The notes below the pieces were generated by a model. The model saw only the letters and a program-made list of their open reading frames with translations, was not told where the DNA came from and ran no database searches. Shown here piece after piece: positions 2,469 through 34,198 of a stretch of 64,000 nt of DNA (position 1 is its first letter; each line of letters begins with the position of its first letter). This stretch comes from Terrimicrobiaceae bacterium (GTDB lineage: Bacteria; Verrucomicrobiota; Verrucomicrobiia; Chthoniobacterales; Terrimicrobiaceae). The position numbers were made by a program, and so were the translations under genes. The stretch lies in NCBI GenBank assembly GCA_041738805.1, contig JBGSPC010000069.1:19610-83609 (forward strand). The letters run 5' to 3'.

Positions 2469-5400
2469 ATGTGTGCTAGCCTGCCTTCGATTGTCTTGAT
2501 TAGCCACGGTTTAACCGAGACAATATTGCCTTTTCAAAATTCCATGCCCGATTCACCGATCTCCAATCCATCAACACAGCTTAAAAAAGAGGGCATTGCC
2601 ATCATTGGAATCGGATGCCGGTTTCCTGGTGGAGTGAATGATGCCGGGGCTTTGTGGAAGCTTCTCATCGAAGGGCGCGAGGGCGTTTGTGATGTGCCTT
2701 CGGATCGTTGGAATGTGGAGAGGTTTTATGATGCCGAGCCGGGGTTGACAGGAAAGTCCATCGCGAAGCGGGGGGGGTTTTTGGACGCGATCGATCAATT
2801 TGACCCGCAATTTTTCGGCATCTCTCCCCGGGAAGCCCCCTACATTGACCCCCAGCAAAGGCTCCTGCTTGAAACCGCCTGGGAGGCCATTGAAGACGCC
2901 GGCATGATTCTTGATTTCGAAAACGGCACCGATATGGGTGTTTTTGCGGGCATCTCGCACAATGATTATCAGGGTCTTCAACACACCCCCACGGACCGCA
3001 CCGGCATCAGTGCCCACACTCCCATTGGCAGTGCACACAGCATCGCGGCCAACCGCATTTCTTATTGCCTCAATCTGACCGGACCCAGCATCGCGATGGA
3101 CACGGCCTGCTCCTCGGCGCTGACGGCCGTTCATGCCGCTTGCGAACACATCCATGCCGGACGCTGCAAGACCGCCCTGGCCGGGGGAGTGACCGTCATG
3201 ATCACTCCGGATGGATTTATCGGCTTCTCGCAAGCCGGGATGTTGTCACCCGAGGGCAAGTGCAAGGCGTTTGATGCGTCCGCTGACGGGTTTGTACGGG
3301 GCGAAGGCGCCGGGATGGTTTTGTTAAAAAAACTCTCTGATGCCATCGCCGATGGGGATTCTATTCATGCCGTCATTCTGGGGTCGTCTGTCAATCAAGA
3401 TGGGCACACAAATGGGATCTCGCTTCCGAGTCCGGAAGCCCAGGCACGACTCGTGCGCGAGGCCTGTGTGGATGCCGGCGTGGAGCCATTGCAGATCGGT
3501 TTTGTGGAGGCCCATGGCACAGGCACGGCCGTGGGCGATCCGATTGAGGCCACGGCCCTGGGCGAGGCCTTGTGTGCCGACCGCCCGGCGGACGAGCCCC
3601 TTCTTGTGGGCTCGGTGAAAACCAATCTTGGCCATCTGGAAACGGCCTCCGGAATTGCCGGTTTGATCAAGGCTGTCCTGGCTCTGAAGCACAAACAAAT
3701 CCCTCCCAGCCTGCATTTTCAAACTCCGAACCCGCATATTGATTTTGAAGGTCTGAAATTGCGGGTTCCGGTGGCCATGGAACCATTTCCTGCCAAGCCC
3801 GGCTCCCCGCGGATGGCCGGCGTCAATTCTTTTGGATTTGGTGGGGCGAATGCCCACATCATTCTGGCTGAGGTTCCAGAGATGGTTTCCCCTCAGGCTG
3901 AGACATCGACCACCGGCGAAATTTCGTGCGCTGAAAGGGCCTGGCCTATCATGATCTCTGCCCGCTCTGAAGCCGCGCTCCAGCTTTCCGCGTCACAGCT
4001 TGGCCATTGGATCGAGCATCATTCCATGAGGAACGGGAGCTCCCCCCTTCTCGAAGATCTGACGTATTCCCTCGGAGCGCGTCGGAATCACCATTCGCAC
4101 CGCCTCACAATCACGTCCCGCTCCATGGCGGAGGTTTCTCAAGAATTCGTGGCGTTTTCGAAAGGCGAACCACTGACCAAAGCCCGCGTGTCTTTCACCC
4201 CACGGCGGGAACATGCGGCGCGCGTGGGTTTTGTGATGAGCGGACAAGGCACACAGGCTCCCGGCATGGGCATGGAGCTCATGACGCAGGAACCGGTGTT
4301 CCGAAAAATGATCGAAGACTGCGAGGAGGCCATGCGGCCTTATGCACGGTTTTCTCTCATCGAGGAACTGTCCCGCCCGGAAGAGACTTCCCAAATGCAC
4401 CGCACGGAGATTTCGCAGCCAGCGATTTTTGCCATCCAGATGGGGCTTGCGGCCCTTTGGAAGTCCTGGGGTGTTGAGCCCGCCGCCGTGGTGGGCCACA
4501 GCGTGGGGGAAATTGCCGCAGCCTGCGTCGCCGGAATTCTCACCCTGGAAGAAGCTGCCCAGATCATCGTTCTTCGTGGACGGTGCATGGATGATCACAT
4601 GCCCGAGGGGGGAGGGATGCTGGCCGTTGGCATGACGGCCGAAGCCGCGTCCGTGGTGATTGCACGTCATGACCGCACGGTGAGCATTGCGGCCTTCAAT
4701 GGTCCCAAATCTCTCACGCTAGCCGGAAACAAAACCTCCCTTGAGGCCATCGGAGCCGAGCTTGAGGCCGATGAAATTTTTGCCCGCTTTTTGAAGGTGG
4801 ACTATCCTTTTCATCACGCCATGATGCAGCCCTCGGCGGATGCTCTCCATGAAGCGCTCTCCGGCCTCACGCCTGTGTCCGGGAGCCTCCCGTTTTTCAG
4901 CACGGTCACCGGTTTGCGTCATTCCGGCGAGGATTGCGATGCGGGGCATTGGTCAAGCGGCGTGCGGCTTCCCGTGGAATTTGCCTCGGCGATTCAATCA
5001 GTGGCCGATCATGGGGTGGATGTCTGGCTCGAAATCGGTGCTCACCCCGCGCTGGTGCGTTCGCTGCAGGAATGCCTGGTGGCTGAAACGACCAAGCCGA
5101 CGATTGTGGCCTCCATGCGACGCGAACGCGAGCACGAGTCTTTGCTCGAAACGGCCATGGACCTTCATATGGCCGGAGTGGAGCTCGATTTTGAGGCCAT
5201 CTCTCCGTCACGCAAATTTTTGGATCTCCCCGCTTATGCGTGGGACAAAGATCGTTGGTGGAATGAGTGTGCGGAAACCCGCGAAGGCCGTCTGGGAGGC
5301 GGAGGACGCGGATTGCTGGATGTGCGTCTCTCCCGTGCCACCCCCACATGGATTGCCCGGCTTGACGGGCGTCATATGGCCTTCCTGAAAGATCATCGCG

Positions 5401-8400
5401 TTGAAAACCACACGATTTTTCCTGCGGCCGGTTTTGTCGAGATGGCGCTCGAAGTCGGTGTGCAGCTGTTTGAAGGAGCCGCCTTTGTGGTGGAGGATTT
5501 CGAGATCCGGAAACCCCTCATCCTGCCTGACCCGGTTTCCGGCCTGCTGCTTGAGCTGACGTATGATCCCACCGCTCGCACGTTCACCATCCAGAGCCGC
5601 TTCGAAAACAGCGCTTCATGGTCGGTGCATGTCATCGGTTCCCTGCGCGGCGAGCGCACCGAATCCGCATTTTCCGGGACTCACTGGGAGAATCGACCCA
5701 CGACAGGCCTGCAGCCCCTCGAAGTCGGTGCCTTTTATGATCACATGAGCGAGATGGGGCTCCGGTACGGGCAGGAATTCCGTCCGATCCGGGAGCTGGC
5801 TGTGGGTGGAGGAAAGTCCCTTGGCCAGGTGTCCCTTTCCGAAGATATCGCAGAACGTGCCGGGGATTATCCATTGCATCCGGTTCTGTTTGATGGGGCC
5901 CTCCAAATTTTCTCTGCCGGCGCGGCAACCGTGGAAGGACGCACAGCCGGGCTCAGGCTTCCCGTGCGGTTTTCCAGGATTTTGTTTTTGCGGTCGCCGG
6001 TGGCAGCGGGACATGTGCGGGCCGGAGTGATTCATGCCAATGACGAACTCGTGGAAGGCAACATTGAAATCTATGACGGTGAAGGCCGGCCCTGTGTTTC
6101 CATTCAGGGTTTTCGTGCGATCAGTGTCGAGGGGGCCCGCCGTTCCAGCAGGACTGGCAAAGGCCGGGACGTGATGTACCACGTTGCCTGGGAGAAACAA
6201 TCCAAACTCCCACCAACCTCTTCTCCCGAACCACTGCCACTTGGTCGTTTGCAGGAAGTGGCGATGGAAGCTCTTGAGGAAGTGTTCACCATGCGCGGAC
6301 GGGATCATCTCGAAGCGGCGAATGCGGCCGATGATGTCCTGGCCCTGTCGCAGGTTGCCTCTGCGTTCGAAAAAATGATTGCTGATACTGAAGAACCCTT
6401 CACGGCAGAATCCCTTGGTGTGGCAGAGTCCATGCGCCAAGTTTTTGAGCAGTTGGCGGGCGATCTGCAGCAAAACGGACTTCTGAAAAAAACGGTCAAC
6501 GGTTATCGGCCGACCCCTGCTCTCCATGAGGCCGCAGAGTCCATGACAGGATTGCTGAGGAGAAACATCACAACGCATCCGGGCCACTTGCCGGAGGCCA
6601 TGCTCTGCTCAGCCACGACAGCGGAGCTCGGCCCGATTCTGCGGGCAGAACGGGACGCCGTGCAGGTTCTGTTTTCGAGTTCCACCACCGATATTCTTGA
6701 TCAGTTTTACGGGGATTCCCCCGTGATCAGCCCGTGGCTCGCAGCGATTGGAAGAGTTGTCGCAGAGCTGGCTGCTCAACTCCCTGAAGGCCGGGGGCTT
6801 CGTATTCTTGAGGTTGGGGCCGGGACGGGAGGACTTGCTTCGATGATCCTTCCCCTTCTCGAACGTGATCTTCACTCGTACGTGTTCAGCGATGTCTCCG
6901 CCTCCTTCTTTCCCGCAGCCCGTCAGAAACTCGCGTCCTTCCCCGAGGTGGAATTCAAAATTTTCGACCTCGAAAAGCCGGGAGCAGCCCAGGAATTTGA
7001 ACCCGACACCTTTGATTTGATCCTTGGCACGAATGTGATCCACGCGGTGAGTGATGTGCGTGACTCGCTCCGAAATCTTCACGACCTTCTGACCCCCGGT
7101 GGGAGTCTGGTTTTTGTGGATGTCGGTTCCCCGCATCTCTGGCTGAATGCGGTCTTTGGTCTCACAAGCGGCTGGTGGCGTTTCTCGGACCGTGATCTGC
7201 GTCCGAATCACCCGCTGCTTACGCGCGCTCAGTGGGAAAAAGTCCTTGGTGACGTGGGCTACAGTGAGGTGTTGTCTTTGCCAGGTCTCCGTCGCCCGAA
7301 CGGCGATGAAAGCCTCATTGGCCTCATGGCCCGCAAGGAGTGGGTTGCACCGCAGTCGTTGCCTCCGGGTGATGATCATATTCCCACCGAAAAATCATGG
7401 CTCATTTTTGCTGATGAGGCCGGGCTTGGAGACCGGCTCGCTTCGCTTGTGCAGGCTGGTGGCGGTCGATGCCGGGTCGTGCACAGCGGACCGGAATTTG
7501 CATCCCAGGGGGCTGACAAATTTTTCCTCAGGCCCGGCGAGAGCGAAGATTGGAAAAATCTGCTCGCGGCGTGCAACGAAGAGCCTCCGGAACGTTTGGT
7601 GTATTTATGGTCTCTGGACGAAAGCCAGACGGACAAACCGTGGACGGCGACCGATGGATTGCTTCATCTCACGCAGGCTCTCGATGAAACAGGCCCTGGC
7701 CGCAAGATGCGATTGGATGTGATCACGCGAGGGGCACAAGCTGCTGGAAAAATGCGTTCCGTTTCGGTGTGGCAGGCTCCCATCCTGGGATTTTTGAGGG
7801 TGGTGGCCAATGAGTACCCCAACATTTCCTGCTGCGGCATCGATCTGTCCCCGGAGGCCTCTGTGAATGAATGTCTTGTCCTGAAGAATGAGCTCTTTCA
7901 GCCACACACCGAGCGCGAAATCGTCTTCCGCGGTGAGGCGCGTTATGTGCGCCGCATTGCCCGCGGGTTGATTCGGGAAGACAGGGTTCTGGATCCCTCC
8001 GTGCAACTCCGCCTCGAGTCGCGGGAGCGGGGATTGCTCGATTCGCTCCGGTTGGTGCCGTTCCTGCCCGCAGCCTGTGCTCCGGGAGAAGTCGAAATTG
8101 AAGTCAAAGCAGCCGGGATGAATTTCCGGGATGTTTTGAAGGCCTTGGCCCTTTACCCTGCGGAAACGGCAGATGCCAGAATCTTTGGAGATGAAGTCGC
8201 CGGAATCGTGAAATCGGTGGGCCGCGACGTGACCCATGTGGCTCCCGGTGACCGGGTGTTCGGATTGGCGGTCTTTGGCCTCGCCACACATTCGATGGCA
8301 AGAGCCGGTGATGTGCTCCCTATTCCGGACGGGCTGACATTTGAGGAGGCGGCGACGTTGCCGGTTGTTTTTATGACGTCATGGCATGCCCTGAAAACCG

Positions 8401-10256
8401 TGGCACATCTCCAACCCGGTGAGCAAATTCTTGTCCATGCCGGGGCCGGTGGTGTGGGTATGGCCGCCATCCAGATTGCCCTTCATCTCGGGTCGGAAGT
8501 GATTGCCACGGCTGGCAGTCCCGCCAAACGCGGGCTTCTGGAAACCCTTGGCGTCAAACACGTGATCGATTCGCGGCGGGGCGACTTTGCGGATGCTGTC
8601 ATGGAGATCACTCACGGGCGTGGCGTGGATGTTGTGCTTAATTCGCTGGCCTCTGAGGCGATTCCCATGGGCCTCGCCTGCCTTGCGGAGTTTGGCAGGT
8701 TCATTGAAATCGGAAAACGCGACATTTATCAGAACTCGCGCATCCCCCTTTGGCCTCTGCGCAAAAACGCGTCATTTCATGTGGTGGCGATGGATGCCAT
8801 CTTTGGAGGGGACGAGGGCCGGACCCGCGATCTTCTCAAAGTGATTGCCGACATGGTTGGGAGAAAAGAAATTTTCCCCCTGCCGTTCAGATCCTTCCCA
8901 GCCTGCCGGATTGATGCGGCCTTCCGTCTGATGGCCCAAGGCAAAAACACGGGCAAGATGATCGTTTCCTTTCCTGAGCCCTTCCTTGCCAGACGCGGTG
9001 AGCCTCCCGCTTTGCCTTTCTCGGTGGACCCGGAAGGCTGTTACCTGATCACCGGGGCCTTTGGTGGTTTCGGAAGGGTCGTGGCCTCGTGGCTTGTCGA
9101 ATGTGGAGCCCGTCACCTCGTGATGACCAGCCGGAGCGGCCCATCAACACCCGAGGCTGTCGCGTTCCTCGCGACTCTGCGTGAGCAGGGCGTGGAAGTG
9201 CAGTCAATCCTTGCTGATGCAGGCTCTGTGCAAGATGTGGATGTGATCTTTGATCGCATCTCCGGGGCTGGCCGCTCACTCAAGGGCGTTTTTCATCTGG
9301 CCATGGTGATTGATGATGCACCAATTGCGGCTTTGACTCCTGATCGCATGCAAAGCGTGCTGGGCCCAAAAGCCATGGGGGCCTGGCTTCTTCACACCAA
9401 AACCCAAAACCTCGCTCTGGACCACTTCGTGATGTTCTCTTCGGTTTCGAGCACCTTTGGCAATCCAGCCCAGGGCAACTACGCTGCCGCCAATGCGTTT
9501 TTGGATGCCTTGGCGCATCACCGTCATTCCATGGGCCTTCCCGCCCTTGCGATCAATTGGGGAGCCCTTGGTGGCGAGGGATATGTGGCCCGCAATGAAC
9601 GTGTGGCAGAGTATTTGGCCCGTCAGGGCACAATCCCTCTCGAGCCCCAGGAAGTGACCCTTCTCATGGAATCCTTCCTTTCGGCGGGAACCACTCAAGC
9701 CTTGGCCCTTCGCGCCGATTGGGTCAAATGGAGAACGTCTTTCCGGGGCAGCCAGGAAAACCCGCTGATGGAGCGCCTCTTCGCGGATGGTGCGGAAGGC
9801 CAAAGTGCCTCCGGTTCAAAAAGCGACTGGCGGTTAAAAATCGAATCTGCCCCCGATGACAAGCGCACAGAGATCATTGTTCTTGCTGTGCTGGATGTCG
9901 TGGGGTCGGTTCTTCGCGTCAAACCTGAAAACCTGCGTCCGGATCAGCCGCTGACAGATTTGGGTCTCGATTCCCTGATGGCCGTTGAGATCGAGACTTC
10001 GCTTGAGAGTGCTCTGGGGGTGGCCCTTCCTCCGGCCAGCCTCATGCGGGCCCGCACCATTGCTCAGATCGCAGCGTTGATTGCGGAATACCTCGCCGGC
10101 TCAAAAAATGCCCCGTCATCGGTCACCAGTGAACCCGCTCCAGAACCCGCCCCCGCCGAAACGGTGGACCTTGAGGCGTTTTCTGATGAAGAAATTGAGC
10201 GTTTGTTTGCCGGGGACCCAACAAATCCCCCTGCGGAATCCGAAGTAAAGCTATGA
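2469..10256 (+). CDS. Type I polyketide synthase, single highly reducing module (KS-AT-DH-cMT-ER-KR-ACP), no terminal TE/R domain
   Basis: The 2595-aa ORF contains, in order: KS (IAIIGIGCRFPGG; active-site DTACSSAL; HGTGT; NLGHLE); AT (GHSVGE); DH (HRVENHTIFPAAGFVEMALE, an HxxxGxxxxP-like variant); C-methyltransferase motif I (ILEVGAGTGGLAS); ER NADPH site (HAGAGGVGMAAIQ); KR (ITGAFGGFGRVVASWL with the NYAAANAFLD catalytic region); and ACP (LGLDSLMAVE). It ends in an acidic PAPEPAPAETVDLEAFSDEEIERLF tail. The true start may be the internal MPDSPIS (about 2544). Confidence 0.9.
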   Translation: MCASLPSIVLISHGLTETILPFQNSMPDSPISNPSTQLKKEGIAIIGIGCRFPGGVNDAGALWKLLIEGREGVCDVPSDRWNVERFYDAEPGLTGKSIAKRGGFLDAIDQFDPQFFGISPREAPYIDPQQRLLLETAWEAIEDAGMILDFENGTDMGVFAGISHNDYQGLQHTPTDRTGISAHTPIGSAHSIAANRISYCLNLTGPSIAMDTACSSALTAVHAACEHIHAGRCKTALAGGVTVMITPDGFIGFSQAGMLSPEGKCKAFDASADGFVRGEGAGMVLLKKLSDAIADGDSIHAVILGSSVNQDGHTNGISLPSPEAQARLVREACVDAGVEPLQIGFVEAHGTGTAVGDPIEATALGEALCADRPADEPLLVGSVKTNLGHLETASGIAGLIKAVLALKHKQIPPSLHFQTPNPHIDFEGLKLRVPVAMEPFPAKPGSPRMAGVNSFGFGGANAHIILAEVPEMVSPQAETSTTGEISCAERAWPIMISARSEAALQLSASQLGHWIEHHSMRNGSSPLLEDLTYSLGARRNHHSHRLTITSRSMAEVSQEFVAFSKGEPLTKARVSFTPRREHAARVGFVMSGQGTQAPGMGMELMTQEPVFRKMIEDCEEAMRPYARFSLIEELSRPEETSQMHRTEISQPAIFAIQMGLAALWKSWGVEPAAVVGHSVGEIAAACVAGILTLEEAAQIIVLRGRCMDDHMPEGGGMLAVGMTAEAASVVIARHDRTVSIAAFNGPKSLTLAGNKTSLEAIGAELEADEIFARFLKVDYPFHHAMMQPSADALHEALSGLTPVSGSLPFFSTVTGLRHSGEDCDAGHWSSGVRLPVEFASAIQSVADHGVDVWLEIGAHPALVRSLQECLVAETTKPTIVASMRREREHESLLETAMDLHMAGVELDFEAISPSRKFLDLPAYAWDKDRWWNECAETREGRLGGGGRGLLDVRLSRATPTWIARLDGRHMAFLKDHRVENHTIFPAAGFVEMALEVGVQLFEGAAFVVEDFEIRKPLILPDPVSGLLLELTYDPTARTFTIQSRFENSASWSVHVIGSLRGERTESAFSGTHWENRPTTGLQPLEVGAFYDHMSEMGLRYGQEFRPIRELAVGGGKSLGQVSLSEDIAERAGDYPLHPVLFDGALQIFSAGAATVEGRTAGLRLPVRFSRILFLRSPVAAGHVRAGVIHANDELVEGNIEIYDGEGRPCVSIQGFRAISVEGARRSSRTGKGRDVMYHVAWEKQSKLPPTSSPEPLPLGRLQEVAMEALEEVFTMRGRDHLEAANAADDVLALSQVASAFEKMIADTEEPFTAESLGVAESMRQVFEQLAGDLQQNGLLKKTVNGYRPTPALHEAAESMTGLLRRNITTHPGHLPEAMLCSATTAELGPILRAERDAVQVLFSSSTTDILDQFYGDSPVISPWLAAIGRVVAELAAQLPEGRGLRILEVGAGTGGLASMILPLLERDLHSYVFSDVSASFFPAARQKLASFPEVEFKIFDLEKPGAAQEFEPDTFDLILGTNVIHAVSDVRDSLRNLHDLLTPGGSLVFVDVGSPHLWLNAVFGLTSGWWRFSDRDLRPNHPLLTRAQWEKVLGDVGYSEVLSLPGLRRPNGDESLIGLMARKEWVAPQSLPPGDDHIPTEKSWLIFADEAGLGDRLASLVQAGGGRCRVVHSGPEFASQGADKFFLRPGESEDWKNLLAACNEEPPERLVYLWSLDESQTDKPWTATDGLLHLTQALDETGPGRKMRLDVITRGAQAAGKMRSVSVWQAPILGFLRVVANEYPNISCCGIDLSPEASVNECLVLKNELFQPHTEREIVFRGEARYVRRIARGLIREDRVLDPSVQLRLESRERGLLDSLRLVPFLPAACAPGEVEIEVKAAGMNFRDVLKALALYPAETADARIFGDEVAGIVKSVGRDVTHVAPGDRVFGLAVFGLATHSMARAGDVLPIPDGLTFEEAATLPVVFMTSWHALKTVAHLQPGEQILVHAGAGGVGMAAIQIALHLGSEVIATAGSPAKRGLLETLGVKHVIDSRRGDFADAVMEITHGRGVDVVLNSLASEAIPMGLACLAEFGRFIEIGKRDIYQNSRIPLWPLRKNASFHVVAMDAIFGGDEGRTRDLLKVIADMVGRKEIFPLPFRSFPACRIDAAFRLMAQGKNTGKMIVSFPEPFLARRGEPPALPFSVDPEGCYLITGAFGGFGRVVASWLVECGARHLVMTSRSGPSTPEAVAFLATLREQGVEVQSILADAGSVQDVDVIFDRISGAGRSLKGVFHLAMVIDDAPIAALTPDRMQSVLGPKAMGAWLLHTKTQNLALDHFVMFSSVSSTFGNPAQGNYAAANAFLDALAHHRHSMGLPALAINWGALGGEGYVARNERVAEYLARQGTIPLEPQEVTLLMESFLSAGTTQALALRADWVKWRTSFRGSQENPLMERLFADGAEGQSASGSKSDWRLKIESAPDDKRTEIIVLAVLDVVGSVLRVKPENLRPDQPLTDLGLDSLMAVEIETSLESALGVALPPASLMRARTIAQIAALIAEYLAGSKNAPSSVTSEPAPEPAPAETVDLEAFSDEEIERLFAGDPTNPPAESEVKL

Positions 10257-11068
10257 TCACCCGCATAACCACCGGCCTCTCCGCGCTCACTCTGGCCAGC
10301 GCTCTTTGGGTCCTGCCCGCCGCAGCCGCAGAATCAGGTCCGCTCTCCGCAAAAGAAATTGCGAAGCACCTCAGTGCCTTGCAACAGGACGGGTCGTCCT
10401 ATGTCCGCCTCCGTCTCAATGTGGAGGAGCCCCCGGGGACCAAAAAAACCGGTCTTCAGATCCAGATCCAGCAACGACGCACTCCCTCTGCCACCGATGT
10501 GATCTATCAGATTCTGTGGCCAAAAGAACGGATGGGAGAAGCCGTGCTTCTAAAAAAAGCGGGTAACCAAGCTGCGACCGGAACGCATTTTGTTCCACCG
10601 GAAACCGTGAAATCCCTGAGTTCCCAAAATATGCAAGATCCACTCTTCGGGAGTGACCTGGCTTATGCGGATCTGATCGAGAATTTTTATGCGTGGGACT
10701 CACAGACACTCGAGGGCGAGGAAATGATCGGGAAAGTGAACTGCCAGATTCTTGAATCCAAACCGGGCAATGGCCAGAGTTCCATCTACACCAGTGTGCG
10801 CAGCTGGGTGGACACCGACCGGCTTGTTCCGCTCCGTGTGGAAAAATTTCAGGGTTCCGGCAAACCCGTCCGTCGCATTGTGACAACCCTTGTCACCAAG
10901 GAAGATAATGGCCAACACATCCCGGCCAACCTCGACGTTCAGGACCTGCGCAAAAACTCAACCACCGAACTCGAAGGTTCCCGCCTCAACACCAGCGTCA
11001 GTTATGAGGACCAGGATTTCACGGTGGAGGCGTTGAAAGAAATCAAAAAGCCCAAGGTTGCAGAGTAG
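10253..11068 (+). CDS. Secreted LolA-like (outer-membrane lipoprotein-sorting fold) protein, translationally coupled to the PKS
   Basis: The ATGA start/stop overlaps the PKS stop codon (10253-10256). It has an N-terminal signal peptide (MITRITTGLSALTLASALWVLPAAAAES). Its roughly 250-aa soluble domain resembles LolA-like / lipoprotein-sorting family proteins that accompany lipid-type PKS/FAS clusters. This is recognition by similarity only. Confidence 0.45.
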   Translation: MITRITTGLSALTLASALWVLPAAAAESGPLSAKEIAKHLSALQQDGSSYVRLRLNVEEPPGTKKTGLQIQIQQRRTPSATDVIYQILWPKERMGEAVLLKKAGNQAATGTHFVPPETVKSLSSQNMQDPLFGSDLAYADLIENFYAWDSQTLEGEEMIGKVNCQILESKPGNGQSSIYTSVRSWVDTDRLVPLRVEKFQGSGKPVRRIVTTLVTKEDNGQHIPANLDVQDLRKNSTTELEGSRLNTSVSYEDQDFTVEALKEIKKPKVAE

Positions 11069-11254
11069 GCGCCTTTGCAGGAGCAATATTCCGCTCTGTG
11101 TTGACGGATAACTCCTTCTCATCGTTGACGCCGGAAGCATCGACCAAAACAGAGGAGCTCAAGGCGAGTCCGTGCCCATTTTTGGAAGAGGTTGAAAACC
11201 ACGGTCGCTTCGCACAGGATGCGGTTGCGCATACCCGTCGCTCCTCTGCAATCC

Positions 11255-13237
11255 ATGACCCTCTCTCTCAACAAGCCCAAGCTCGACAATCTCGCCTCCG
11301 ACATCTGGAAATCCGCCGAGCGACTCCGTGGAAAGTTCAAGTCCTACGAATACCAGAGCGTCATCCTACCCATCATCGTCATTCGCCGATTGGAGTGTGT
11401 GCTCCTTGATTGGCGGAAGAAAAAATCAATCGAAGTGCTGAAAAAGCGGCCAAAGCTCACTGAGAAGGAACTCGCCAAGCTGGTCAAGGAATTGGAGTTG
11501 AACCCCAAGCAGTGCCCCTTCTCAAACACCACGGACTGGACGCTCCACTCGATCTATGCGGAAGACCACTCGCTACTGGAGGAGAACTTCCGCGCCTATA
11601 TCAATGGGTTCTCGAAGAATGTCGATGACATCATTGAGCACTTCAACTACCGCGCCACCATCGGCCTGATGGTGAAGAACAACCGGTTGGCTCCGATCCT
11701 GAATCAATACAAGGAACTCGCGTTCGGCCCCGACCAGCTCTCCGGGCTGGAGATGGGCTACGTTTACGAGGAATTGCTCCGGCGCTTCTCAGAACAAAGT
11801 GGTGACGAAGCCGGGGAGCACTTCACTCCGCGCGAAGTCGTCCGTCTGATGGTCGAGTTGCTGGATATTCCCATTCCGGACAAGCACCTCTCGATTTACG
11901 ACCCCGCCAGCGGTACGGGCGGCATGTTGTCGGTGACAAAGGAGCACCTGCTGGAGCGTGCCAACAAACCGGAGGAAAAGGCACGGGTGGAGAAATACGT
12001 CACAGTTCACGGGCAGGAGCTTTCCCCCACGAACTACGCGGTTTGTCAGGCCGACCTCCTCATCAAGAACGACCGGCAGGCCACCGTCCACCTCGGCAAC
12101 TCGCTCATCCCTCACGACAAGGATAGCAAAGAGCCAGGTGACCAGTGGCCGGAGCCGAAATGGCGCTTCAACCGGATGCTCAGCAACCCGCCCTTCGGTG
12201 TCACCTGGGGCGGTAAGGATGGCTACGAAAAAGAAGCCCGCAAGCTGGAGAAAACCCGCTACCGGGCCGGGATGCCGCGCGTGAATGATGGCGCGCTGCT
12301 CTTTTTGCAAACCATGCTGGCGAAGATGGCCCCGCCGGAAGAAGGCGGTAGCCGGATCGCCATCATCTTCAATGGCTCGCCCCTCTCGAATGGGGATTGC
12401 GGCTCCGGCGAGAGTGAGATTCGCCGCTGGATTTTGGAAAACGACTGGCTCGACGCCATTGTTATGCTGCCTGACCAGCTCTTCTACAACACCGGGATCT
12501 TCACCTATGTCTGGCTGCTGCGAAACGACAAGCCAGCCAGCCACAAAGGCCGTGTGATGCTCATCGATGCCCGCAAGCAATTTGAGAAAGAGCCGAAATC
12601 CTTTGGCAACAAGCGCCACCGCATCACCGATGCCCACCGCGCATGGATTGAGGAGCGTTACACCAAAGGTTGGGCGAAGGGCTATGCCGACGACCACGTC
12701 AAAATATTCCCGTGCGAGGACTTTGCCTATCACAAAGTCAGCGTCGTCTTCTGGCAGACGGATGAACACGACCAGCCCGCCACCATTACCGAGCCTTACG
12801 AAAGGGCCTTCACTGCCGCGAACGTGAAGAAAGAACAGGACTTCCACGAGAGCGACCTGACTTTCCGCGTGAGGGTGAAGGCCAAGAGCAAGGAGAAGAC
12901 CGTCGAGTTCACCGTCAAGGCAAAGGACAACGCCGCGAAGAAGTTCAAGGAGGCGCTGGCCGATGCTGACGAAACACTCTCCGTCGAATGGACGCACCGT
13001 CACTACGTGCAAGATGACGAATACATCCCGCACGGCGAGGACATCGAGGCGTTCCTAAAACGCGAAATCGCCAAACCGATCATCCGCTGGGCGGACGGCC
13101 CGCAGCTCGGCTACGAAATCCTGCCGAACAAATACTTCTATCGCTACCAACCGCCCACGCCTGCGAAGGACTTGCTGGCCGAGTTCTGGAAGCTGGAGAA
13201 GGACGCGGAGAAGATGCTGGAGGGTCTCGCCAAATGA
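11255..13237 (+). CDS. hsdM: Type I restriction-modification system methyltransferase subunit HsdM (N6-adenine)
   Basis: It has the typical HsdM N-terminus (LDNLASDIWKSAERLRGKFKSYEYQSVILPIIVIRRLECVL) and SAM-binding motif I (DPASGTGGML). The catalytic NPPF motif is present (LSNPPFGVTWGG). The ORF track start at 11192 extends upstream, and the internal ATG at 11255 fits HsdM alignment better. Confidence 0.9.
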   Translation: MTLSLNKPKLDNLASDIWKSAERLRGKFKSYEYQSVILPIIVIRRLECVLLDWRKKKSIEVLKKRPKLTEKELAKLVKELELNPKQCPFSNTTDWTLHSIYAEDHSLLEENFRAYINGFSKNVDDIIEHFNYRATIGLMVKNNRLAPILNQYKELAFGPDQLSGLEMGYVYEELLRRFSEQSGDEAGEHFTPREVVRLMVELLDIPIPDKHLSIYDPASGTGGMLSVTKEHLLERANKPEEKARVEKYVTVHGQELSPTNYAVCQADLLIKNDRQATVHLGNSLIPHDKDSKEPGDQWPEPKWRFNRMLSNPPFGVTWGGKDGYEKEARKLEKTRYRAGMPRVNDGALLFLQTMLAKMAPPEEGGSRIAIIFNGSPLSNGDCGSGESEIRRWILENDWLDAIVMLPDQLFYNTGIFTYVWLLRNDKPASHKGRVMLIDARKQFEKEPKSFGNKRHRITDAHRAWIEERYTKGWAKGYADDHVKIFPCEDFAYHKVSVVFWQTDEHDQPATITEPYERAFTAANVKKEQDFHESDLTFRVRVKAKSKEKTVEFTVKAKDNAAKKFKEALADADETLSVEWTHRHYVQDDEYIPHGEDIEAFLKREIAKPIIRWADGPQLGYEILPNKYFYRYQPPTPAKDLLAEFWKLEKDAEKMLEGLAK

Positions 13238-14361
13238 AAAAGACTACAGATGCCACTCTGGCGATTAGCGCCGACTACCGCCAGTTCATCGAAGAACTGA
13301 AGGCGCGCGTGGTTTCTGCACGCATCTCTGCCGCCCGGGCCATCACTCACGAGGCTATCCTTCTCTACTGGGACATCGGACAAGGGATCGTGGAAAGACA
13401 GCAGTCTCACGGCTGGGGGGATGCTGTCGTCGAAATGGTTGCTGCGGATCTGCGGGAGGCATTTCCAGGGGCAAAAGGCTTCTCTCCACAGAACGTCTGG
13501 CGCATGCAGCAGTTCTATCTCGTTCATAATCAGCAAGAATTTCTCGCACAACTTGTGCGAGAAATGGAGAAGGATGGTAAAAAGGCACCAACTCCTGAAA
13601 ATCTCTCACAGGTTGTGAGAGAAATGGTTTCGCTCGTTCCGTGGGGACACCATGTCAATGCCCTCACCCGAGTTACCGACCCTGCCGCCCGGCTCTGGTA
13701 TCTCCGTGCCACCGCCCGCTTCGGTTGGTCGCGCAATGTGCTGCTCAATCAGATCAAGGCCGGGGCCTACGAACGTGCCGTGACGGAGAAGAAGACGCAT
13801 AACTTCGATCTCGCCCTGCCGGAACACTTCGCGGAGCAGGCGGACGAGATGCTCAAGAGTTCCTACAACCTCGAATTTCTCGGCATCCGCCGCGCTGTGC
13901 GTGAACGCGAACTCGAAGACCGGCTCATCTCCCGCCTGCAAGCATTTCTTCTCGAACTGGGCTATGGCTTCTGCTTCGTCGGACGGCAGCACCGCATCGC
14001 ACTGGGCAGGAAAGAGTATTTTATCGATCTGCTCTTTTATCACCGCTTCCTCAAGGCCCTCGTCGCCTTCGATCTCAAGGTCGGCCCTTTCGAGCCGGAA
14101 TTCGCGGGCAAGATGGATTTTTACCTGAATCTCCTCAACGACAAGGAACGCGGCCCCGACGACCAGCCTTCCATCGGCATCATCCTCTGCGCGGAAAAGG
14201 ATGACGTGGAGGTCGAGTATGCCCTGCGCTCAAAGGCCAATCCCATTGGCGTCGCCGCTTACGAATTGCAGTCGAAACTGCCAGGCGAGTTGAAGGGCAA
14301 ACTGCCGACGGCAAAACAGCTAGCGGATATGGTGCGGGGGGAAATGGAGGGGGGGAAATGA
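13234..14361 (+). CDS. YhcG-like DUF1016 / PD-(D/E)xK nuclease-family protein embedded between hsdM and hsdS
   Basis: It overlaps the hsdM stop by 4 nt (ATGA). The N-terminal domain (ISAARAITHEAILLYWDIGQGIVERQQ...WGDAVVEMVAADLREAFPGAKGFSPQNVWRMQQFY) is characteristic of the YhcG/DUF1016 family. The C-terminal region carries a PD-(D/E)xK-like core (FIDLLFYHRFLKALVAFDLKVG). This family is commonly found inside type I RM loci. Confidence 0.75.
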   Translation: MKKTTDATLAISADYRQFIEELKARVVSARISAARAITHEAILLYWDIGQGIVERQQSHGWGDAVVEMVAADLREAFPGAKGFSPQNVWRMQQFYLVHNQQEFLAQLVREMEKDGKKAPTPENLSQVVREMVSLVPWGHHVNALTRVTDPAARLWYLRATARFGWSRNVLLNQIKAGAYERAVTEKKTHNFDLALPEHFAEQADEMLKSSYNLEFLGIRRAVRERELEDRLISRLQAFLLELGYGFCFVGRQHRIALGRKEYFIDLLFYHRFLKALVAFDLKVGPFEPEFAGKMDFYLNLLNDKERGPDDQPSIGIILCAEKDDVEVEYALRSKANPIGVAAYELQSKLPGELKGKLPTAKQLADMVRGEMEGGK

Positions 14362-15686
14362 ACGACACCCTCGCAGCACAATCGCTGTGGCCTGTTGCCC
14401 GGATCAAAGATCATGTATCGAAGATCGGGAGCGGTGTCACGCCATCCGGCGGCGCTGCGTCGTATCTCGATGCCGGTGTTCCTTTGTTGCGAAGTCAGAA
14501 CGTGCATTTTGATGGATTGCGGCTTGATGACGTAGCGTTCATCGCTGCCGAAACTCATGATGAGATGAGCGGCACTAAATTAAAGGCGCGTGATGTGCTG
14601 CTGAACATTACTGGAGCTTCCATCGGTCGTTGCGCTTTTGTGCCCGACAGTTTTGGCGAAGGGAACGTCAACCAGCATGTGTGCATCATTCGCCCGACGG
14701 CGAGACTTGATCACAGGTTCCTGACCTACTGCCTGTCTGCTCATTGGGGACAGGACCAAGTCTTTTCCAGTTTCACCGGAGCTTCGCGGCAGGGCTTGGG
14801 CCAGCGCGATCTCGGCGCGATTCAAGTGCCGCTTCCCCCGCTGCCACAGCAACAGCGCATCGCGGCGTATCTGGACGCAAGTTGCGCGGCGATTGACGCG
14901 GCGGTAGCCGCCAAACGCCGCCAACTCGAAACCCTGAATGATCTTCGCTCTTCAATCATCTGCCGCGCTGTCACACACGGGTTGAACCCTAAAGTGGCAT
15001 TGAAATCTTCCGGGATGGACTGGAGCCCAGAGGTTCCCGCCCACTGGCAAGTCCGGCAGATCAAACGCCTGTGCAGTTTAGTTCGCGGCCAGTTTACTCA
15101 TAGGCCAAGAAACGACCCGGCCCTCTACGACGGCCCGTATCCATTTATCCAGACCGGCGACATCACAGCCGCAGGGAAATATATCCGCACCCATTCCCAG
15201 ACGCTCAACGAGCTCGGGTTGAGCGCGAGCAAGCAATTTCCCCGTGGCACTCTCGTCATGTCCATCGCAGCCAACATCGGGGACGTAGCCATCCTCGATT
15301 TTGAAGCCTGTTTCCCGGACAGCATGATTGGGATGATTCCCGGCCACAAAACCAATCTCGATTTCCTTTATTACCTCATGCGCTCCATGCGGGGCATCAT
15401 GCTGCGTTCTGCTGTTCAGAGCACGCAGCTCAATCTGAACTACGTCCGCATCGGGACGAACTTCGCGCCTGTCCCCCCGCTGACGGAGCAAAAGGCCATT
15501 GCGGAATACCTCGATGCGAAAGAGCATGAATCGCAGTTGATTTGCACCACCATCCAATCCCAAATCGCCACCCTCACCGCCTACCGCAAATCGCTAATCC
15601 ACGAATGCGTCACCGGCCAGCGGCGGGTTACGGAAGCGGACGTGCGTGCAATTCGGGAGAAAATCCCTACAATGGCCAAAGCATAA
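14358..15686 (+). CDS. hsdS: Type I restriction-modification specificity subunit HsdS (two target recognition domains)
   Basis: It overlaps the upstream stop by 4 nt. Two variable TRD halves are each followed by the conserved HsdS spacer motif (LPPLPQQQRIAAYLDASCAAIDAAV and PPLTEQKAIAEYLDAKEHESQ). Confidence 0.85.
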   Translation: MNDTLAAQSLWPVARIKDHVSKIGSGVTPSGGAASYLDAGVPLLRSQNVHFDGLRLDDVAFIAAETHDEMSGTKLKARDVLLNITGASIGRCAFVPDSFGEGNVNQHVCIIRPTARLDHRFLTYCLSAHWGQDQVFSSFTGASRQGLGQRDLGAIQVPLPPLPQQQRIAAYLDASCAAIDAAVAAKRRQLETLNDLRSSIICRAVTHGLNPKVALKSSGMDWSPEVPAHWQVRQIKRLCSLVRGQFTHRPRNDPALYDGPYPFIQTGDITAAGKYIRTHSQTLNELGLSASKQFPRGTLVMSIAANIGDVAILDFEACFPDSMIGMIPGHKTNLDFLYYLMRSMRGIMLRSAVQSTQLNLNYVRIGTNFAPVPPLTEQKAIAEYLDAKEHESQLICTTIQSQIATLTAYRKSLIHECVTGQRRVTEADVRAIREKIPTMAKA

Positions 15687-15695
15687 GGCTGAACC

Positions 15696-16805
15696 ATGCC
15701 CGAATTGGATTACATCACTGTCAAAGGATTCAAGAGTATCGCTTCCATCGATAAGTTGAAGCTCGGGGCAATCAACGTCGTCATTGGTCCGAATGGTTCG
15801 GGAAAATCGAACTTCATTGGAGTGTTTTCCTTCCTGCACGCCATCCGTGAGGGGCATCTTCAGGAATATGTTCTCAAAGCTGGAGGTGCAGAAAAGGTGC
15901 TTCATTTTGGATCGAAAGCCACAAAGAACATCCATTTGCATATCTCGTTCCGTGACGGCGTGAATCAGTATGAATTGGATTTGACGCCAACAGCCGGGGA
16001 TGAACTGGTTCCCGTCGCTGAGTGGGTCTATTTTTGGAACAAGGCCCAATATCCTGATGGTCCTACAGGTCGGGGGGTCAACCGCATTGGCAAAGAAGCA
16101 GGGATCAGCGCTCCCAAAGGCCAGCCAATTGCCGCCTACGTTCGCAATCATTTGGATAGCTGGCGGCTATACCATGTCCATGACACAAGCAGCAGTTCGC
16201 CCATGAAAAAGACGGCGGATGTGAACGACAACCGTTATCTGCGCCCCGATGGATCCAACATTGCTCCCTTTCTTTATTATCTGCGAGAAAAGCATGAGAC
16301 CGCCTACAGCCTGATTCGTCGTACGGTTCAGCGAGTTGCCCCATTTTTTGATGATTTCCAGTTGGAGCCGCAAAAACTCAATCCGGACAAAATTCTGTTG
16401 GAGTGGAAACACAAGGGCTCGGATGCGTATTTCGATGCCTCGTCGCTGTCGGACGGCTCCTTGCGGTTTATTGTTTTGGCGACACTTTTCCTCCAGCCCG
16501 AGTCCTATCGTCCCTCGGTCATCCTTGTGGATGAGCCCGAGCTCGGACTGCATCCCTATGCAATCACGATGCTGGCCTCTCTTGTGAAGCAGGCCTCCAC
16601 AAAGACGCAGGTCATCATTTCCACCCAATCCCCGCTGTTACTTGATCACTTTCAACCCGAGGATGTGCTGGTGGCGGATCGTGTGGGCGGCGGCACTCAG
16701 TTCACCCGACTGGAACCTGGCAAACTGAGCGGCTGGCTGGAGGACTACAGCTTGGGCCAACTCTGGGAGAAGAACGAGTTTGGGGGAAGGCCAACCCCGG
16801 AATAG
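15696..16805 (+). CDS. ABC/OLD-type AAA ATPase (AAA_15/AAA_21-like), first gene of a two-gene ATPase+TOPRIM module
   Basis: Walker A is at the N-terminus (VVIGPNGSGKSNFIGV), right after a KGFKSI..L start typical of OLD/RecF/SMC-like ATPases. A signature-like motif (SSLSDGSLRF) and Walker B / D-loop (ILVDEPELGLHP) follow, then a late His-loop region (VIISTQSP). It begins 9 nt after the hsdS stop. Confidence 0.8.
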   Translation: MPELDYITVKGFKSIASIDKLKLGAINVVIGPNGSGKSNFIGVFSFLHAIREGHLQEYVLKAGGAEKVLHFGSKATKNIHLHISFRDGVNQYELDLTPTAGDELVPVAEWVYFWNKAQYPDGPTGRGVNRIGKEAGISAPKGQPIAAYVRNHLDSWRLYHVHDTSSSSPMKKTADVNDNRYLRPDGSNIAPFLYYLREKHETAYSLIRRTVQRVAPFFDDFQLEPQKLNPDKILLEWKHKGSDAYFDASSLSDGSLRFIVLATLFLQPESYRPSVILVDEPELGLHPYAITMLASLVKQASTKTQVIISTQSPLLLDHFQPEDVLVADRVGGGTQFTRLEPGKLSGWLEDYSLGQLWEKNEFGGRPTPE

Positions 16806-16810
16806 GACCC

Positions 16811-17503
16811 ATGGCGCGCCTGTTCATCCATGTCGAAGGAGAGACGGAGGAAACGTTTGTGAACGTGGTGCTGGCCCCGCATCTTTACAGGCTTGGCTAT
16901 CAGAAAGTGAGTGCCCGCCTCCTAGGCAATTCGCGTAATCGGGATCGAAGGGGAGGGATTCGGAGTTGGGCTTCCGTTCGGGCAGACATCATCAACCACT
17001 TGAAGGAAGACCGCGAGTGCCTTGCCACAACCATGGTGGATTACTACGCATTGCCCAGAGAGGGACATGCAGCCTGGCCCGGACGCTTGGAAGCAGCATC
17101 CAGACCATTCCCCGAAAAGGCAACCCAGGTTCAGGCCGCATTGCTGGCGGATATTGCTGCCGAACTCGGTGACGAATTCAATCCTCGTCGATTCGTCCCC
17201 TACGTGATGATGCATGAATTTGAGGGATTGCTCTTCAGCGACTGCCAGCGATTTGCTGATGGAATCGGACGTCCGGAGCTGGCGACCAAATTTCAAGCGA
17301 TCCGGGATGCCTTTTCCTCCCCGGAGGAAATCAATGACAGCCCGATTACCGCGCCTTCCAAGCGTGTGGAGGCGCTCGTAGCCGGATATCAAAAGCCGCT
17401 GCTCGGTGCTCTGGCCGTGCTGGAAATTGGCTTGGACAAGATCGTGCAGGAGTGCCCGCATTTTCGGGCATGGGTGGAACAACTCGAAAACTGGGTGAGG
17501 TAA
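16811..17503 (+). CDS. DUF4276-like protein with TOPRIM-type N-terminal motif; partner of the upstream ATPase (candidate split OLD-family nuclease)
   Basis: This 230-aa protein begins 5 nt after the ATPase stop. Its N-terminus (LFIHVEGETEETFV) matches the TOPRIM conserved-glutamate strand seen in OLD-family, AriB and DUF4276 proteins. Its size and position fit the AAA_21+DUF4276 gene pairs found inside type I RM loci. The family assignment is from memory and was not computed. Confidence 0.55.
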   Translation: MARLFIHVEGETEETFVNVVLAPHLYRLGYQKVSARLLGNSRNRDRRGGIRSWASVRADIINHLKEDRECLATTMVDYYALPREGHAAWPGRLEAASRPFPEKATQVQAALLADIAAELGDEFNPRRFVPYVMMHEFEGLLFSDCQRFADGIGRPELATKFQAIRDAFSSPEEINDSPITAPSKRVEALVAGYQKPLLGALAVLEIGLDKIVQECPHFRAWVEQLENWVR

Positions 17504-20433: not shown

Positions 20434-20437
20434 AGCC

Positions 20438-21100
20438 ATGAGCAAGACCATTCACGACATTCCTGAGGCCGACCGACCGCGGGAGAAACTCCTGCGCAAA
20501 GGCGCTGCGGCTCTGAGCGACCAGGAATTGCTCGCTGTGCTCCTCGGCAAAGGCACCACAAAAATTGACGTAATGACACTGGCACGGAACGTCAGCACGG
20601 TCGCAGACAAGAAAGGCTTGGAACTAACGGTTGATGACCTTGTGGGCCTCGAAGGGATGGGCAATAGCAAGGCTATGATTCTCATCGCCGCCATCGAGTT
20701 CGCCCGCCGCCGCATCAAACCGGAGGGAGCGAAGATCGTGACCCCTGCCGACCTGCTCCCACACATACGTCACTACGCTGACCGCAAGCAGGAGCATTTC
20801 CTCTGCGCCAGCATCAATGGTGCGAACGAGATTTTGAACATCCGGGTAGTTTCCATCGGGTTGATCGACCGCAGCCCCGTGCATCCCCGTGAAGTCTTCG
20901 CTGATGCTCTGGCAGATCGCGCTTCCGCTGTCATCGTGGCTCACAACCACCCGAGTGGTGGCCTCACTCCTTCGCCCAACGATTTGGACATGACTTCGCA
21001 GCTCAAATCAGCAGGCCTGATCGTTGGCATCGAGTTGCTTGATCATATAATCTTTAACAGGACCGATTATTTTAGCTTTTTGGAGGAAGGGAGTTTTTAG
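20438..21100 (+). CDS. RadC-like JAB/MPN+ domain protein
   Basis: It has the RadC N-terminus (PREKLLRKGAAALSDQELLAVLLGKG). The JAMM motif is VAHNHPSGGLTPSPNDLDMT (HxHx7Sx2D). It lies 5 nt downstream of the hsdR stop. Confidence 0.85.
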   Translation: MSKTIHDIPEADRPREKLLRKGAAALSDQELLAVLLGKGTTKIDVMTLARNVSTVADKKGLELTVDDLVGLEGMGNSKAMILIAAIEFARRRIKPEGAKIVTPADLLPHIRHYADRKQEHFLCASINGANEILNIRVVSIGLIDRSPVHPREVFADALADRASAVIVAHNHPSGGLTPSPNDLDMTSQLKSAGLIVGIELLDHIIFNRTDYFSFLEEGSF

Positions 21101-23987: not shown

Positions 23988-24014
23988 GAAGGTGATTCGA
24001 CGGTCCTGGGGTGG

Positions 24015-24602
24015 TTATCGGGTTTTATCTTTGCCCAGAAGACCAGTCTTTATCGAGGATTGCAGAGGTTTGCCAATCCAAAGACGCAGAAGCGCATGAT
24101 AAAAATCCCGGCCGGGAATCGCGGCTTGCCTCTCACCATCCACCATAACCACGGTCCCCTCCGATGGAAGGTAGTCAATGGTGATTTCTGACCCCTTGTT
24201 GAGGTCCGCGCCATTCTGAAACGCTTTAAAAAAAACTTCGAGCTCCTCTGCAAAAACGCCCTGCTCCAACGCCGTGAGATTTTTGTCCAGATTATCCCGC
24301 ACGGCAGAGGCAAACTTCTCTTCTGGCACGGATCGAAGCATGATGATCTTGAGGCGCTTCGGCCCATGGTTGTGGTCCATAATTCCGGCCTCGTCATCGG
24401 TTGCATGACTCACATACAGGCCGGCATCATACACCCCGATCCCGAAGACGCTCCGTGTTGCCGTTCCATTGAGAACAAGCGCCAGCCCACCCAGATCAAT
24501 GGGCTCGGGAAACCCGTCTTTGGGACCGCCGAAGGCTGCGCTTATCATGCTCAGGGCGACCAATGCAAAACATCCGGGGAGAGAAAAATTAAAACGCATC
24601 AT
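24015..24602 (-). CDS. Secreted chalcone-isomerase-fold (CHI-like / fatty-acid-binding-protein-like) protein
   Basis: Signal peptide (MMRFNFSLPGCFALVALSMISAAFG). The core LALVLNGTATRSVFGIGVYDAGLYV matches the conserved CHI-like strand (L.G.G.R...KVYA.GLY). I took the start at the internal MM at 24602 rather than the ORF track start at 24686. Confidence 0.55.
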   Translation of the reverse strand: MMRFNFSLPGCFALVALSMISAAFGGPKDGFPEPIDLGGLALVLNGTATRSVFGIGVYDAGLYVSHATDDEAGIMDHNHGPKRLKIIMLRSVPEEKFASAVRDNLDKNLTALEQGVFAEELEVFFKAFQNGADLNKGSEITIDYLPSEGTVVMVDGERQAAIPGRDFYHALLRLWIGKPLQSSIKTGLLGKDKTR

Positions 24603-24654
24603 TGGCAAATATCGGTCAGTTCCAGGCGTAAATCCATGGGTAATACAGCTTAGA

Positions 24655-34153: not shown

Positions 34154-34198
34154 TTCCCATTCCGGGAGGCTGACTCGCGCCTCCCGATTCGAAATCTC

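Follow-up and report, generated by a model that had tools for sequence, protein, structure and literature searches.

A reducing polyketide synthase and a LolA-like protein of a Terrimicrobiaceae bacterium as members of a predicted lipid synthesis and export cluster of the Verrucomicrobiota

The phthiocerol dimycocerosate pathway of mycobacteria (Mas, PapA5, DrrABC/MmpL7 and LppX) uses a condensation-fold acyltransferase for release and a LolA-fold envelope protein for outward transfer. Verrucomicrobiota are abundant in soil and water, and their envelope lipids are barely known. Here we describe a locus in a 64-kb stretch of DNA from a Terrimicrobiaceae bacterium (contig JBGSPC010000069.1; the whole stretch is called the window), in which the gene for a highly reducing (HR) type I polyketide synthase (PKS) directly precedes the gene for a secreted LolA-like protein, hereafter the carrier. 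By homology and gene order, both belong to a conserved cluster, 6 to 10 genes in size, that many Verrucomicrobiota share and whose probable role is to synthesise a methyl-branched lipid and export it to the envelope.

The parallel with the mycobacterial pathway draws on established knowledge: in both, an iterative (here, predicted to be iterative), fully reducing type I synthase without a thioesterase is combined with a separate condensation-fold release enzyme, an ATP-binding cassette (ABC) transporter and a LolA-fold protein. The individual parts differ. Mas takes methylmalonyl-CoA and has no C-methyltransferase (cMT), whereas the PKS of the window has a cMT together with acyltransferase motifs that predict malonyl-CoA. 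An earlier reading of the window made without database searches (the sequence-only reading) had placed the PKS in the style of mycocerosic acid synthase or of fungal HR-PKSs. Mycocerosic acid synthase is its best solved relative in a PDB search (1024 bits; modular PKSs, LovB and animal fatty-acid synthase come next), but scores stay well below the NCBIfam equivalog cut-offs for Mas and Pks2 (1217 bits against 2400 for NF041183, and 1332 against 1740 for NF045894), and the cMT again sets the window PKS apart. Unlike PapA5, the release candidate of the cluster is more like the condensation (C) domains of nonribosomal peptide synthetases (NRPSs). The transporter is LolD/LolE-like rather than of the DrrABC/MmpL kind, and instead of a lipoprotein the carrier is a soluble member of PF17131, in a diderm verrucomicrobial host.

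The transport genes invite comparison with the Lol pathway. An ATPase, a MacB_PCD/FtsX permease and a secreted LolA-fold protein make up a trio that corresponds to LolD–LolC/E–LolA, but the scores fall below the Lol cut-offs, the carrier belongs to PF17131, the permease is encoded by a single gene and no LolB-like gene was found in any locus examined. Because the trio is embedded in a lipid-biosynthesis operon, its cargo is probably not a lipoprotein. The best structural match of the carrier is LolA3, described in Porphyromonas gingivalis and Flavobacterium johnsoniae, which is likewise secreted and larger than LolA; the two differ in that the profile match (E = 4e-12) corresponds to an identity of only about 19%, and in that LolA3 has no PKS context (PMC13103446, PMC11885536). 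No function or phenotype has been assigned to LolA3 itself, and LolB is not its partner (PMC13103446, PMC11885536).

Biosynthetic loci with LolA-like genes have been described before. Aryl-polyene and flexirubin clusters contain LolA2/LolB2-like genes, and the LolA-like protein is thought to move the lipid pigment to the outer membrane (PMC11885536). The sequence-only reading had pointed to this parallel, which serves as an analogy in that each biosynthesis locus has its own LolA-like protein. It goes no further, as those clusters are type II systems with dissociated fatty-acid-synthase-like enzymes, LolB-like genes and different transport genes, whereas the window encodes a type I megasynthase and the cluster a Lol-like ABC transporter and no LolB-like gene; no type II genes (KS/CLF, ACP, KR or DH) were found among the window open reading frames (ORFs) scanned. 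The cyanobacterial heterocyst glycolipid system (an HglE-type PKS with DevBCA) also couples a PKS-made envelope lipid to export by a MacB-family ABC transporter. DevBCA, however, needs a membrane-fusion protein and TolC, where the cluster has a LolA-like protein instead, and the PKS architecture is different. As to the synthase, the fungal HR-PKS LovB and the C-methyltransferase of CurJ provide the precedent for a domain order with the cMT between DH and ER, and LovB carries a C-terminal condensation domain. The window PKS differs in being bacterial, in having its C domain on a separate protein and in the cMT His–Glu pair, whose Glu is an Asp throughout this PKS family.

Gene content of the conserved cluster

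The carrier has 1285 relatives in the database. A scan of one genome per species returned 219 loci, 80 of which were retained for a census by tblastn, and nearly all of these 80 are labelled Verrucomicrobiota. The sole locus with another label (L017, Gemmatimonadota) is a 2.7-kb contig with ATPase, permease and carrier genes; given how short the contig is, this is probably a binning error rather than a transfer.

The census did not bear out the idea of a stand-alone PKS, as the sequence-only reading had described it. A MacB_PCD/FtsX permease gene lies immediately upstream of the carrier gene in 67 of the 74 informative loci. Of the 55 with at least 6 kb of upstream sequence, every one also encodes an ABC ATPase, a membrane fatty-acid desaturase (PF00487) and a free-standing C domain, and 54 encode the PKS. 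The canonical operon runs PKS, C domain, desaturase, LolD-like ATPase, MacB/LolE-like permease and, last, the LolA-like carrier. Cultured bacteria that have it include Prosthecobacter spp. and Brevifollis gellanilyticus (P0302). Immediately after the PKS stop, 58 loci have the C-domain gene and 13 have the carrier gene, which overlaps by ATGA in 11 of the 13. Across more than 80 loci, the PKS is 60–86% and the carrier 51–84% identical; the Prosthecobacter counterpart of the window PKS has 68% identity by tblastn. In the window, three further members of the cluster lie at 21226–24686, on the far side of a 10-kb island, and four are missing.

The C-domain protein has the HHxxxDG motif (HHAIADG) and resembles NRPS C domains, its best solved relatives being peptide synthetases. 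LolD is the best NCBIfam match of the ATPase, and MacB and LolC/E are those of the 371-aa permease, all below equivalog cut-offs. Each component of the cluster is of a known kind. What is new is their combination, kept throughout a phylum, in which a type I HR-PKS with a cMT is joined by a free C domain, a desaturase, a Lol-like ABC transporter and a LolA3-type carrier. Full-text literature searches found no published account of this cluster.

Two loci hold a related module with no PKS within 10 kb (L089, 8816–18982, and L090, 8828–19077). It encodes a 374-aa protein, a 1260-aa patatin, a lipoprotein hydrolase, a desaturase, a LolD-like ATPase, an FtsX permease and a LolA-like protein that is 45–46% identical to the window carrier. 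Such PKS-less modules suggest that the export machinery may serve more than one lipid source, or that a paralogous system exists.

The synthase and the LolA-like carrier

The PKS occupies a single ORF at 2469–10256 on the forward strand (7,788 nt, 2595 aa). Pfam domains (E-values from 2e-95 to 5e-15) follow one another in the order KS-AT-DH-cMT-ER-KR-ACP, just as the sequence-only reading had it, with a small change at the N terminus. The real start is probably M26, at nt 2544, which gives a gene at 2544–10256 and a protein of 2570 aa, because the database copy (P0201) has 2570 aa, because homologues begin 13–14 residues before the motif KEGIAIIG, and because the ATG at 2469 is not kept in the related locus L015. 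Residue numbers given here are counted from nt 2469.

The ketosynthase (KS) domain spans residues 41–417 (nt 2589–3719; PF00109 and PF02801), with Cys214, His349 and His389. It is followed by the acyltransferase (AT) domain at residues 588–905 (nt 4230–5183; PF00698), with Ser678 in GHSVG, Arg703 and the YPFH motif at 779–782, and by the dehydratase (DH) domain at residues 949–1224 (nt 5313–6140; PF21089 and PF14765), with His976 in HxxxNxxxxP and Asp1142 in DxxxQ. The cMT, a class I methyltransferase by its Pfam matches, covers residues 1429–1598 (nt 6753–7262) and has an EVGAGTG motif, His1525 and Asp1551. The enoylreductase (ER) domain at residues 1872–2166 (nt 8082–8966; PF08240, PF00107 and PF13602) contains the NADPH-binding motif HAGAGGVG at residues 1990–1997. 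The ketoreductase (KR) domain at residues 2190–2367 (nt 9036–9569; PF08659) has TGAFGGFG, Ser2325, Tyr2338, Asn2342 and a B-type IDD motif, and the acyl carrier protein (ACP) at residues 2474–2538 (nt 9888–10082; PF00550) has Ser2502 within DSL.

To assess integrity, we read the PKS translation against an alignment of 19 homologues with 66–86% identity. All catalytic residues of the KS, AT and DH named above are present and invariant, as are the GxGxG motif and His1525 of the cMT, the whole HAGAGGVG motif (1990–1997) of the ER, the Ser, Tyr and Asn of the KR and the ACP serine. Inactivating substitutions in the DH, ER or cMT, which the sequence-only reading had proposed to look for, were not seen. 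Judged by its sequence, the synthase is intact and fully reducing and consists of one module that includes a C-methyltransferase. The cMT matches the C-methyltransferase of CurJ (5thy) at E = 3e-55, and also those of PksCT and LovB. Iterative use of the module is inferred, as there is only one module, no loading module and no partner PKS gene in any locus.

The choice of extender unit can be predicted from the AT, in which the sequence-only reading had noted a YPFHH stretch near nt 4800 (it is found at residues 779–783, about nt 4803). When aligned with the ATs of DEBS, the window AT has GHSVG and YPFH (HPFH in most relatives) in place of GHSQG and YASH. By established motif rules this predicts malonyl-CoA with moderate strength, and any methyl branches would then come from S-adenosylmethionine (SAM) via the cMT.

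No match to a thioesterase or reductase domain was found in the PKS, in agreement with the sequence-only reading, and the part beyond the ACP is a tail of only 57 aa. This acidic tail is conserved (VDLxAxSDxEIxRL; V2566, D2567, L2568, D2573 and L2579 are kept in the 19-sequence alignment), and it may be a docking site for the C-domain protein.

The carrier gene (10253–11068, forward strand, 271 aa) begins within the end of the PKS gene: the stop TGA at 10254–10256 overlaps the ATG at 10253, and this ATGA (10253–10256), already noted from the letters and here read directly, couples the two genes translationally. The protein matches PF17131 (LolA_like; TP_0789-like) at E = 2.3e-27, with 96.3 bits against a gathering cut-off of 30. 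PF17131 was the only family matched at E ≤ 0.01; there was no match to the canonical LolA family and none in NCBIfam. By inspection, its N terminus is basic (R4), with hydrophobic residues at 8–26 followed by AAAA/E and no Cys, which indicates secretion as a soluble protein. Foldseek matched an AlphaFold model based on 23 homologues (pLDDT 73.8) to structures of the LolA superfamily with TM scores of 0.6–0.8. These include LolA3 of P. gingivalis (9tp6; E = 8e-14, TM 0.66–0.73) and a Vibrio "lipoprotein-sorting" protein (3bk5; TM 0.69/0.79), then DUF1329 (4z48) and the LolA-superfamily protein 3buu, with LppX (2byo) and LprG lower in the list. The signal peptide and LolA fold that had been proposed from the sequence thus hold, and the model confirms the carrier as an open beta-barrel of LolA type, of the LolA3/PF17131 branch rather than canonical LolA.

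Layout of the locus in the window

To place the window among its relatives, we compared it with L092, the best-resolved relative, whose PKS is 85% identical. On one strand L092 carries C domain, desaturase, ATPase, permease, PKS and carrier; on the opposite strand, starting 25 nt past the carrier stop, it carries genes for a 374-aa protein, a 546-aa alpha/beta-hydrolase and a chalcone-isomerase-like protein. The same three genes lie at 21226–24686 in the window and are 64–86% identical to their orthologues. The gap between the carrier and 374-aa genes is 19–25 nt in L092 and L006, as against 10,157 nt in the window. The PKS gene stands immediately before the carrier gene in seven species-level loci of the window's clade (Terrimicrobiaceae, Chthoniobacterales, "Spartobacteria"). 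Upstream of the PKS, by contrast, the divergent patatin-like gene of the window is shared with L015 only, and four close loci (L092, L006, L012 and L013) have the permease there. The window is a rearranged, island-split and locally incomplete example of the cluster.

The stretch that separates the two parts (11192–21100, forward strand) was assigned by Pfam and PADLOC to defence functions and is not part of the lipid system. It encodes a type I restriction–modification system (hsdM, hsdS and hsdR) with an embedded DUF1016 nuclease (PDC-S02), the pair HEC-01A/B (AAA_21 and DUF4276) and a terminal RadC. These 10 kb are most simply read as an inserted defence island; no direct or inverted repeats and no integrase were found at its borders. 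Further downstream on the same strand, at 31979–39400, a 724-aa ORF without a Pfam match precedes a 1733-aa protein whose domains are DUF3686 ("ATPase involved in DNA repair"), DUF7902 and AAA_5; these genes may be another defence or repair system.

Sequence similarity within the locus is uneven. Between L015 and the window, the patatin-like protein is 90% identical and the PKS only 75% and the carrier 68%, while the PKSs of L011 and L092 are 85–86% identical to that of the window. The L015 discordance could reflect recombination within the locus.

A conserved non-coding block of about 70 nt (2470–2543, forward strand) lies directly upstream of the likely PKS start codon and aligns with L015 and L016 far better than the remaining intergenic DNA does. 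It is kept in L016 despite the different upstream genes there. The block may be a promoter or leader. A riboswitch was considered and rejected, as there was no Rfam match, the fold z-score was −0.5 and the predicted hairpin was not kept in L015 or L016.

The three genes beyond the island are all on the reverse strand. The hydrolase gene (22347–23987) encodes a lipoprotein with PGAP1/Abhydrolase_6-like Pfam matches, a lipobox (LLTGC) and a nucleophile motif (GHSMGG), and its orthologues, at 68–87% identity, keep the same position in L004–L014. The chalcone-isomerase-like protein (24015–24686; PF16036, E = 5e-36) likely starts at M29, nt 24602, and has a hydrophobic segment at residues 34–54; its position is conserved in relatives. 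The lipobox of the one and the signal peptide of the other imply that both act outside the cytoplasm. We also considered the hydrolase as the missing thioesterase, and rejected it, as the lipobox places it on the wrong side of the membrane.

The 374-aa protein (21226–22350), predicted to be cytoplasmic, is encoded by a gene coupled by ATGA to the hydrolase gene upstream, and it is kept beside the hydrolase or patatin gene in nine loci (L092, L006, L088–L090, L003, L023, L074 and L075). It had no Pfam, NCBIfam or PDB match, even with a 7-sequence profile, and its single-sequence AlphaFold model (pLDDT 45) was unusable. A KAFAAGTGLS...SDRD stretch weakly resembles SAM-binding motifs I and II; however, when compared with the PKS cMT by hhalign, only these two motifs aligned, at 2.5% probability, and a methyltransferase assignment is unjustified.

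At the other end of the locus, the frame at 1–2322 on the reverse strand (Pfam Patatin) runs off the window. It comprises 774 of 1274 codons and is 100% identical to the N-terminal 774 aa of the 1274-aa protein P0121, a membrane protein in which two patatin domains (PF01734, 95.6 bits on the full protein) are accompanied by about five hydrophobic segments. The C-terminal domain has GGVFSG, GSSVG and DGG motifs, and the N-terminal domain GLSVG and DGN. In some loci the orthologue forms a triplet with the 374-aa protein and the hydrolase; in L074 it is merged into the canonical operon, and in L089 and L090 it belongs to the export module without a PKS. In one metagenome-assembled genome (MAG), it is on a different contig from the PKS (L091 and L011, respectively). 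Accessory genes of the cluster are often dispersed in this way in other genomes. The patatin-like protein is thus a real associate of the export module and an accessory member of the cluster.

Proposed lipid route and its alternatives

We hold with moderate confidence that the PKS and the carrier are members of a lipid synthesis and export cluster that works as follows. In repeated rounds that use malonyl-CoA, NADPH and SAM, the PKS would extend an acetyl or fatty-acyl primer into a saturated acyl chain with methyl branches, bound to its ACP. Release of this chain onto an amine or hydroxyl acceptor would fall to the C-domain protein, presumably encoded in another part of the genome, and the desaturase would then modify the lipid. 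The Lol-like ABC transporter would pull the lipid out of the inner membrane, and the LolA-like protein would ferry it over the periplasm to the outer membrane or cell surface, while the lipoprotein hydrolase and the chalcone-isomerase-like, 374-aa and patatin-like membrane proteins would be accessory factors that remodel or bind lipid. The operon of this genome would have been rearranged, leaving the PKS directly before the carrier (4-nt overlap), the patatin-like gene divergent upstream and the 10-kb island after the carrier.

Two ideas of the sequence-only reading fare differently in this scheme. Its proposal that the PKS product passes to a periplasmic carrier fits the neighbourhood in general terms, as the carrier follows directly on a LolD/LolE-like ABC transporter in relatives; product and destination are inferred. 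It had also suggested the patatin-like gene as the off-loading enzyme. The hydrolase/transferase gene at 1–2322 is there, but the off-loading role is unsupported: the gene that follows the PKS in most loci encodes a C domain, and this trans-acting protein is the likely off-loader.

Several observations weigh against the proposed route. The DH has Asn980 where the HxxxGxxxxP motif has Gly, and the cMT has Asp1551 where CurJ, PksCT, DisA and LovB have Glu; both residues, invariant in the 19 homologues, might affect activity. The AT is overall more like methylmalonyl-specific ATs, such as those of DEBS, than malonyl ones, so that two short motifs are the basis of the malonyl prediction. A tblastn search of the 64-kb window for the C-domain, desaturase, ATPase and permease genes returned only an unrelated ABC ATPase (35% identity, 62797–63438), and all four are absent from it; with the rest of the genome unread, the pathway may therefore be incomplete here. 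LolA3-type proteins are without a demonstrated ligand or phenotype (PMC13103446, PMC11885536). Finally, every step of chemistry and transport, and with it the product, acceptor and destination, is deduced from homology and synteny.

Among the alternatives, the one that survives best, though we consider it unlikely, is that the cluster yields, instead of an envelope lipid, a small secreted compound (for example a surfactant, a signal or an antibiotic amide) exported by a MacB-type pump, with the LolA-like protein as a periplasmic pump accessory. MacB-type and DevA-type transporters export substrates other than lipoproteins, and the ATPase scores against MacB, DarD and DevA models (E = 3e-55 for the DevA subfamily). 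A MacB-type tripartite pump, however, requires a membrane-fusion protein and TolC, as in MacAB-TolC and DevBCA, and no membrane-fusion or TolC-like gene was found in any locus examined. The NRPS-type release enzyme, with peptide synthetases as its nearest solved relatives, and the failure of LolA3 to pair with LolB (PMC13103446) also speak for this reading, but the carrier fold, the lipoprotein hydrolase and the chalcone-isomerase-like protein (fatty-acid-binding-like) point to a hydrophobic cargo held in the envelope.

The missing genes raise the question of whether the locus is an eroding remnant, in which the C-domain, desaturase and ABC genes were lost after rearrangement and insertion and the PKS and carrier no longer export a lipid. 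Four of six core genes are missing from the window, which shows two rearrangements relative to its closest relatives. Decay on that scale would sit poorly with a 7.7-kb ORF free of frameshifts and stops, in which the catalytic residues all match the family consensus, with intact carrier, hydrolase, chalcone-isomerase-like and 374-aa genes at 64–86% identity to their orthologues, and with the preserved ATGA coupling; the dispersal of accessory genes in other genomes offers a precedent for the layout. We regard a remnant as improbable.

Marginally less probable still is a self-contained unit of two or three genes, in which the patatin-like protein acts as hydrolase or transferase on the ACP-bound chain and the LolA-like protein, on its own, delivers it to the outer membrane: the patatin-like gene is divergently adjacent to the PKS in the window and L015, it retains intact serine-hydrolase motifs, the 64 kb contain no C-domain gene and orthologues co-occur with the export module in L074, L089 and L090, but this adjacency is not kept (the permease precedes the PKS in four close loci, and the patatin gene is elsewhere in the L091/L011 MAG), patatin modules without a PKS exist, a C domain follows the PKS in 58 loci, and a periplasmic carrier needs a membrane transporter for a cytoplasmic product, which related loci always encode.

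The comparison also illustrates that a single window can make a member of a cluster look stand-alone, and that proximity here pointed to the wrong release enzyme.

Returning to the synthesis and export route, a more specific form of it is possible, and we put it forward tentatively: in many Verrucomicrobiota a dedicated Lol-like route, with a type VII ABC extractor and a LolA3-type periplasmic chaperone, would have as its cargo, instead of a lipoprotein, a polyketide-derived lipid that is methylated from SAM and joined to an acceptor by the free-standing C domain. If true, diderm bacteria would have in it a counterpart to the mycobacterial dimycocerosate system, and the orphan LolA3/PF17131 family would gain a first function. 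Identification of the lipid would assign that function and show whether Lol-type machinery moves non-protein lipids. The 7.7-kb synthase gene is kept at 66–86% identity across families and is always tied to a Lol-like exporter, which suggests an important surface lipid in these Verrucomicrobiota; it would be a second, independent case in which a Mas-like enzyme supplies methyl-branched lipids for the cell surface, as in mycobacteria.

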